64,000 nt of DNA from Eledone cirrhosa (taxonomy: Eukaryota), in assembly GCA_964016885.1 (NCBI GenBank), contig OZ024746.1, positions 27,900,001-27,964,000 of the forward strand. The letters run 5' to 3'. Below the pieces are notes generated by a model. That model saw nothing but the letters and a program-made list of their open reading frames with translations. It did no database searches and had not been told where the DNA came from. The position numbers and the translations under genes were made by a program. Shown here in pieces: positions 37,277 to 37,686 of the stretch; position 1 is the stretch's first letter, and each line of letters opens with the position of its first letter.

Positions 37277-37686
37277 ATTATTAAAAATGTAAGCTATCGC
37301 CGTATTTTTGACTAAAGAAATTAAATAAATTATTTAGCCTGATAGTGGGGTTAAGAACCCTCGGATAAATGGAAAAAGATGAGTATTGACGTTCATCGCT
37401 GTTTCGAAAATATTCTTACTTGACATTACAGTCGCTAAGTTTATAGCTTCTATTTTGAATGGAAAAAGACGGGTGATATGTTGGTGTAAATGGTAGCACA
37501 GTGGTCCGAATAACCAAAGAAGTGGGTTCGACTCCCATGTACGTCAATACTCATCTTTTTCCATTTCTGCGAGGGGTTCTTAACCCCACTAAATAATTTC
37601 TTTAATTGCTTTAGTCAAAAATACGGCGATAGCTTACATTTCTAATAATTTCAAACCTACTCGCTGTTTCGAAAATATTCTTACTA
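37277..37686 (+). mobile_element. (TA)n-inserted foldback/partial-tandem element carrying a tRNA-like unit
   Basis: Inverted arms 37277-37392 / 37541-37649; 25-bp direct repeat TCGCTGTTTCGAAAATATTCTTACT at about 37395 and 37660. Confidence 0.75.
37475..37546 (+). ncRNA. tRNA-like cloverleaf (probably not a translating tRNA)
   Basis: 72 nt; D arm GTGT/GCAC, anticodon arm TGGT/ACCA with loop CCGAATA, T arm GTGGG-TTCGACT-CCCAT, imperfect acceptor GATATGT/GTACGTC; T5 about 10 nt downstream. Confidence 0.65.

Follow-up and report, generated by a model that had tools for sequence, protein, structure and literature searches.

A tRNA-like cloverleaf in a multicopy element of Eledone cirrhosa: a candidate Pol III-driven non-autonomous Penelope-like element

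Introduction

Animal (non-LTR) retrozymes derive from Penelope-like elements (PLEs) as non-autonomous forms with units of 150–400 nt (PMC7229834; bioRxiv 10.64898/2026.07.22.740005). The element described here lies in a 64,000-nt stretch of the E. cirrhosa genome, hereafter called the window. It shares with retrozymes the short non-coding tandem unit, the range from monomers to long arrays, and the link to PLEs. However, each retrozyme unit carries a type I hammerhead, whereas the element has none in the two subfamilies scanned, A and B, and carries a tRNA-like cloverleaf on an outer stem instead. The hammerhead-bearing neighbours of the element in the window are of the retrozyme kind.

The SM-alpha and Sj-alpha repeats of Schistosoma are likewise tandem, with a Pol III promoter inside the unit, and an upstream unit transcribes the next one. 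The SINE-like SM-alpha keeps an active hammerhead (reviewed in PMC6765202), whereas the element lacks one and has a full cloverleaf, a PLE tail and inverted arms. The TRIMp3 group of TRIMs (Cassandra, Helenus and Ajax) carries tRNA or 5S promoters inside terminal repeats (PMC10886601). These elements resemble ours in their non-autonomy, their non-decoding tRNA and the promoter derived from a small RNA within a terminal repeat, which in our case is predicted from sequence. TRIMp3 elements have true LTRs of fixed extent, an internal region, PBS and PPT, a 5-bp TSD and LTR machinery. In contrast, the element forms pseudo-LTR tandems with variable 5′ ends, a PLE tail and (TA)n targets, and has no internal region.

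Non-autonomous Chlamys (MRC1) and Naiad PLEs are hammerhead-less like the element, and likewise have pLTRs, head-to-tail multimers and a tail of 30–40 bp; Naiads also share its (TA)n bias. No tRNA module is reported for MRC1 or Naiads in the available text (PMC8557442). MRC1-type elements share their 3′ ends with a partner, whereas none was found for the element among 40 loci. The autonomous PLEs sampled in the E. cirrhosa genome have a C-terminal endonuclease, which distinguishes them from Chlamys and Naiads. The tRNA-derived SINEs have A and B boxes and a start just upstream of the A box, as is proposed here, but they consist of a 5′ tRNA head and a LINE-type tail, whereas the element has an internal tRNA, a permuted tandem unit and a PLE signature.

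The initial annotation knew of no described class of this kind. No tRNA-bearing non-autonomous PLE was found in the full-text literature searched, which included the available parts of PMC13282606 and 10.1101/596502 and few subscription papers, but SM-alpha and Cassandra/Helenus are close analogues. The family may be present in Repbase or Dfam as an unclassified SINE or PLE. The element appears to work like an animal retrozyme, yet does not have the defining hammerhead. The best reading is that it would be the PLE counterpart of what SINEs are to LINEs and Cassandra and Helenus to LTR elements. We propose, with a probability of roughly 0.6, that it is copied by PLE machinery and transcribed by Pol III from the A and B boxes of its tRNA part, which would make it a Pol III-driven non-autonomous PLE.

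Results and discussion

Structure of the copy in the window

The copy in the window is 5′-truncated and represents a non-coding tandem unit of which there are some thousands of copies. In unit numbering, u1 corresponds to window position 37396, and the cloverleaf spans u80–u151. The parts of the copy are the following:

37221–37278: left (TA)n target array
37277–37396, minus strand: inverted 5′-truncated arm, matching 37537–37649 with 106 of 121 alignment columns identical
37396–37420, plus strand: first copy of the 25-nt direct repeat, the end of the preceding unit's tail and the 5′ end of the direct tract
37421–37456, plus strand: spacer from tail to outer stem
37457–37474, plus strand: 5′ arm of the outer stem closing the cloverleaf; its pairing purine run is conserved in subfamilies A–D
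37471, plus strand: G at −4, the outer edge of copy 5′ ends and putative Pol III start
37475–37546, plus strand: tRNA-like cloverleaf of 72 nt (Rfam), with a Gln-like D arm and a non-conserved anticodon loop
37482–37493, plus strand: A box (by sequence)
37525–37535, plus strand: B box and T loop (by sequence); A58 is 37531
37547–37567, plus strand: 3′ arm of the outer stem, with T5 at 37556–37560
37571–37587, plus strand: small hairpin 3′ of the outer stem
37650–37685, plus strand: PLE-type tail between two putative RT start sites, containing the second copy of the direct repeat (37661–37685)
37685–37709: right (TA)n target array

The layout agrees in most respects with the initial annotation, which had described (TA)n flanks, an inverted arm, an unduplicated tail of about 35 nt (37650–37684 has no copy in the arm) and a 72-nt cloverleaf with A box, B box and T5 run. 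The Rfam tRNA model matches 37475–37546 with 35.1 bits (cut-off 29); ARAGORN with default settings called no tRNA at the element. The 25-nt direct repeat exists with the annotated spacing of 265 nt, but the family unit is 271 nt long, and the difference is due to a short deletion in the window copy. The arm had been placed next to the 3′ end of the cloverleaf, which is close, but it actually extends 6–10 nt into it. The end of the arm thereby falls in the 3′ strand of the T stem and acceptor, the main truncation zone of the family. A TSD is unreadable inside a (TA)n target.

Subfamilies and tandem arrays

The 3.0-Gb host genome contains at least four subfamilies, A–D, with units of 262–290 nt. 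A 22-mer from the tail of subfamily A (271-nt unit) has 1433 exact matches genome-wide, the tail of subfamily B (262-nt unit) has 1308, and the tail or body of subfamily D (unit of about 289 nt) has 421; these are matches and not loci, because tandem and inverted copies are counted twice. The unit of subfamily C is 290 nt long. The median identity to the consensus is 96.6% for A (84 loci), 94.3% for B (28 loci) and 91.1% for D (57 loci). The element is thus not single-copy. Its cloverleaf belongs to the repeating unit and was present in every full unit examined, which argues against the separate insertion of a SINE head.

The 290-nt units of subfamily C are arranged head to tail in a satellite on one contig (C28, approximately 19.44–19.71 Mb; L269–L274). 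All six 10-kb samples between 19.438 and 19.71 Mb contained 25–35 units, which are about 94% identical to a dispersed copy, and samples at 19.35 and 19.40 Mb contained none. If continuous, the satellite is about 270 kb long or more. A diverged tandem array of subfamily B, several kb in length, was found at contig C1:131.459–131.466 Mb (L277). Three loci (L149, L152 and L134) carry a tRNA-type SINE within the unit's tail or spacer, at roughly the same place in all three; the SINE at L149 is flanked by a 16-nt duplication. These SINEs were possibly co-mobilised with the unit or prefer it as a target. A pattern scan of metagenomes for the element gave no matches. Contigs from two runs of unrecorded kind on one sample also contain the family.

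Insertion anatomy and the link to Penelope-like elements

Insertions were characterized in 87 subfamily A loci picked by the tail alone, the first ones on contig C1, with duplicates removed. The standard 3′ end was present in 81, and in 79 of the 81 the direct tract ends at u23–28. An inverted arm accompanies 63 of the 81; it ends at u237–262 in 57 of the 63, and at u257–262 in 36. The length and junction of the arm differ copy by copy, whereas the tail of about 35 nt is fixed and occurs on one end only. The terminal tail runs into (TA)n in 75 of the 81 loci, compared with a background of 6.9% in the window, and into (CA)n in four. In 11 of the 81 loci, the direct tract exceeds one start-to-tail length and reaches up to 805 nt. 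Copies are variably 5′-truncated, tandem and circularly permuted, and have no poly(A) or simple-repeat tail of their own. These observations bear out the claim of a non-autonomous element with PLE geometry: the 5′ truncation and junction points vary among loci, the tail is fixed, and the targets are (TA)n.

The same layout is described for PLEs (PMC8557442). In PLEs, the tail is bounded by two internal start sites of the RT, and both target strands are cut and extended (PMC11167929). PLE RNAs with mutated hammerheads still insert in vitro, which shows that cleavage is dispensable there (PMC11167929). The E. cirrhosa genome contains 10,596 GIY-YIG candidates, of which at least 150 were scored as GIY-YIG loci. 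Its autonomous PLEs have open reading frames of up to 937 residues that combine an RT with a C-terminal GIY-YIG domain and a Neptune/Nematis-type cysteine linker motif. Intact elements of this kind lie in (TA)n and have the same arm-plus-tail layout, with tails of 36–63 nt in six of eight loci. No sequence shared with the A or B unit was found in the 40 RT–GIY-YIG loci compared (best E 0.71). Therefore, the case for PLE mobilisation rests on geometry and target. On this basis, the copying enzyme is very probably a PLE RT-endonuclease.

The element is extremely unlikely to be a SINE of the ordinary, LINE-mobilised kind, or a MITE, present in (TA)n by chance. The tRNA-derived segment with its A and B boxes and the inverted repeats at the ends would fit such elements, but arm length and junction set per copy, a fixed 35-nt tail, permuted tandem units and the missing poly(A) or simple-repeat tail do not.

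Two sequences outside the family share short stretches with it. The end of an unrelated (TA)n element (L046:1501–1528) consists of the last 28 nt of the family A tail, likely as a result of a template switch between families. A hammerhead-type neighbour family has a 16-nt motif (L135:458–473) that matches the region of the unit's downstream hairpin with an E value of 0.11 and may do so by chance.

Search for a hammerhead

When both strands of the A and B units were scanned with a relaxed pattern that allowed a C3–G8 or U3–A8 pair, no hammerhead was detected, in agreement with the initial annotation, which had seen no CUGANGA/GAAA core. As a positive control, the same pattern returned candidates in nine segments of the window and in all seven autonomous PLE loci scanned. 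Rfam ribozyme models matched nothing in a dimer copy, but they also missed the hammerheads of the neighbours, so that the pattern scan is the search with a working positive control. An antisense hammerhead-like core in the unit was rejected, as it has neither the 3–8 pair nor the stem geometry.

Hammerhead-bearing (TA)n elements with inverted arms are located in the window at 36671–37220, 37710–37957 and 61529–63014. In the second of these, the head-to-head join is found immediately upstream of the catalytic core of either strand. Six autonomous RT–GIY-YIG PLEs (L219, L220, L225, L234, L236 and L237) and the window fragments 4829–4958 and 38091–38498 contain minimal hammerhead candidates that have a U3–A8 core and a short palindromic stem III. 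Such candidates escape a search for the canonical CUGANGA.

Conservation and fold of the cloverleaf

Of the 72 positions of the cloverleaf, a single one distinguishes subfamilies A and B, compared with 46 of 202 positions elsewhere. Because the tRNA part had led to the discovery of subfamily B, 27 B loci were re-sampled by the tail, and only the length of the D loop and the anticodon loop vary within the cloverleaf of this sample. Between A and D, 9 of 72 cloverleaf positions differ, compared with 82 of 193 outside the arms, and each of the four stem changes either preserves a pair or adds one (simulated chance 0.02). This pattern suggests that the cloverleaf is under constraint between subfamilies. 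Covariation was not seen: none of the 21 cloverleaf pairs shows a two-sided change, and the percentage paired is not above that of shuffles. In strict register, two acceptor pairs are mismatched in the cloverleaf of subfamily C.

The cloverleaf might be a passenger, picked up in a single template switch, that does nothing but block the RT. The missing two-sided covariation would agree with this, as would the decay within subfamily A, which is equally fast in the cloverleaf (3.9%) and outside it (2.5–5.3% in four other regions), as dead copies would show. Nevertheless, a passenger is very unlikely, given the strong conservation between subfamilies, the stem changes that preserve pairs, and the cost of keeping a segment that truncates about two thirds of the cDNAs.

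The anticodon loop differs among subfamilies, with T at position 37 in A–C. Since the anticodon is free to vary, the cloverleaf is predicted to be non-decoding and not a functional tRNA gene; a conserved anticodon, U33 and a purine at 37 were not found together, in line with the negative ARAGORN result. The cloverleaf, its D arm especially, is Gln-like by sequence, with 43–45 matches to the genome's own tRNA-Gln and 45–53 to seven pattern-selected phage tRNAs (five Gln, two Trp), which settles neither the genome nor a phage as the source. A cluster of tRNA-Gln genes at 168.21–168.28 Mb of contig C1 (L158–L168) includes some with altered anticodons, which ARAGORN calls Pyl.

In each of the four subfamilies, leader and trailer pair to form an outer stem. 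It is more stable on the tRNA strand (−35.9 to −43.6 kcal/mol) than on the opposite one (−23.8 to −28.7 kcal/mol) in each of them. Changes between A and G are retained opposite U, both arms are longer in D, and pairing continues past the T run, which lies 10 nt 3′ of the cloverleaf and consists of T5 in A and B and of T7 plus T6 in D. The z value of the core alone is −2.6; a circular fold of the A monomer is no better than shuffles (z −1.4). In the bare 71–72-mer, the cloverleaf lies 2–6 kcal/mol above the minimum-energy fold.

These properties of the outer stem, together with stem conservation that extends beyond the A and B boxes, also suit a different role. The element could be mobilised by PLEs while the cloverleaf on its outer stem serves mainly as a structural RNA module (a stabiliser, an RT-binding site or a circularisation aid). 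The RNA would then be a tandem or circular read-through product of another polymerase, and the −4 end a nuclease nick. The T5–T7 run, the T58 box of subfamily D and the tracts longer than one start-to-tail length would be in keeping with such a module. Against it, both boxes have stayed intact in the younger three subfamilies, at the 5′ edge a purine follows a pyrimidine 11 nt before the A box, and no nuclease is known to us that cuts at −4. On balance, a mainly structural role is rather unlikely.

5′ ends at the −4 edge

The 5′ ends of A copies form a weak cluster at u74–84, which contains 9 of the 81 direct tracts (p 0.006) and 5 of the 63 inverted ones, the latter not significant. In a set of 123 cloverleaf 5′ halves, which includes loci picked by tRNA identity, 77 run on into upstream unit sequence; the tRNA part is thus internal, as annotated, and unlike a SINE head. 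The remaining 46 have no upstream arm. Their starts fall between −6 and +9 in 44 cases and at −13 in two, and the interval from −12 to −7 is empty. A 4-nt leader is present in 10 of the 46, and the start is exactly +1 in one. Several copies with the 4-nt leader carry one or two more letters, which are explained by microhomology. The −4 cluster comprises 10 of 30 tracts that reach it in subfamily A, about 2 of 22 by eye in D (p 0.05), and none of 10 in the tail-selected B sample.

The −4 edge (37471) is a G that follows a pyrimidine 11 nt 5′ of the A box. A purine after a pyrimidine at this distance from an A box is as in a Pol III start, and not as in RNase P cleavage. The Pol III promoter, one of two roles that the initial annotation had offered for the cloverleaf, fits this map of 5′ ends, and we consider initiation at −4 moderately probable.

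The second role offered was that of a processing signal, in which RNase P and/or RNase Z, or tRNA splicing endonuclease with RtcB, would cut the tRNA mimic in place of the hammerhead. The near-perfect cloverleaf with discriminator and the clustering of 5′ ends near +1 speak for it, but the ends extend to −4 and only one lies exactly at +1. There is no excess of A 5′ ends past the discriminator (u150–160; 5/81 direct, 2/63 inverted) or at the anticodon loop (u110–120; 1/81 and 1/63). A genome-wide leader-to-trailer pattern gave 10 matches, none of which was a tRNA-less unit; all were chance inversion junctions. Moreover, paired leader and trailer should hinder both RNase P and RNase Z. Processing in place of the hammerhead is therefore improbable, even with the ligation of retrozyme circles by RtcB in its favour (PMC7229834).

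5′ ends at the T arm

The main accumulation of A 5′ ends is at u135–149, with 28 of the 81 direct and 31 of the 63 inverted tracts, where about four are expected. Among tracts reaching the T arm, 75 of 124 stop there in A and B, which have A58, and 11 of 60 in D, which has T58 (p 5e-8); in this comparison, D is older and differs elsewhere too, and copies share masters. A fresh sample of D contained T-arm stops in 6 of 37 tracts. The anchor-based count had been 73/124 versus 5/17 (p 0.035) before 60 D loci were added, and an earlier BLAST-based count gave 67/151 versus 5/31 (p 0.004) by a method that undercounts palindromic junctions. Stops inside the body are more frequent in D (26/49 versus 9/49).

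Subfamily D has T58 and G59, yet it keeps the same 4-nt palindrome at the T arm as A and B. Since D stops less often, the palindrome alone does not explain the T-arm peak. A block that depends on A58, either m1A58 or the T54–A58 fold of the loop, would account for it. The stops peak at position 63 and not at 59, just 3′ of A58, and trimming to the 4-nt palindrome or AT microhomology must be assumed to fit this. Misreading of m1A was looked for as substitutions of A58, which occur in 5 of 142 copies, with 0–3 at eight other A positions; these are too few for a signal. The A58-linked stops suggest that the template RNA likely folds like a tRNA, and it may also be methylated like one. Stalling of the RT at a folded, possibly methylated T arm is quite probable.

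Proposed mechanism of copying

Based on the anatomy of the copies, a cycle can be proposed for a Pol III-driven non-autonomous PLE. In a tandem (pseudo-LTR) master, Pol III would initiate 4 nt upstream of the cloverleaf, at the G, and would partly read through the T5 run. The PLE protein would nick both strands of a (TA)n array, and cDNA synthesis would begin internally, at two sites separated by about 35 nt. These cDNAs would stall at the folded and probably A58-methylated T arm, or run off the 5′ end of the RNA, and their head-to-head joining would yield the inverted arm together with a direct copy and the tail. A two-unit transcript with one promoter and two tails would rebuild a dimer with a fresh promoter, which is the logic of pseudo-LTRs. 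Alternatively, the promoter could be rebuilt by an R-type jump between repeated cloverleaves, as in Cassandra. If two-unit transcripts regenerate the promoter, ribozyme cleavage is not needed.

Three observations count against the Pol III reading. The T5 run of A and B, or the T7 plus T6 runs of D, should halt Pol III before the tail; subfamily D was amplified despite a B box without A58; and the outer stem requires sequence upstream of the putative start. The T runs, the weak B box of D, the outer stem and the patchy −4 cluster together keep the structural role of the cloverleaf alive. The promoter and the structural role can both hold.

We give about an even chance to the most extensive form of the preferred reading: an undescribed class of tRNA-promoter elements ("PLE-SINEs") that dropped the hammerhead, whose truncation map records an A58-dependent, probably m1A58, block, and that can seed a quarter-megabase satellite. 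If true, the third subclass of retrotransposons would gain a "PLE-SINE" beside the SINEs of LINEs and the TRIMp3 of LTR elements. What the hammerhead does for PLEs and animal retrozymes is an open question, since in vitro it can be dispensed with (PMC11167929). The success of a family that has a tRNA mimic in its place suggests that a transcribed tandem unit that has a tail is all that trans-mobilisation by PLEs requires. The 270-nt unit would be a natural substrate for mapping recognition by the PLE protein, and the A58/T58 pair of subfamilies is a natural experiment that ties RNA folding or modification to 5′ truncation. Families of this kind would probably be mislabelled as SINEs, tRNA pseudogenes or unknown repeats.

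Elsewhere in the window, a 36-nt tandem repeat of 29 copies (57959–59011) lies inside long open frames on both strands.
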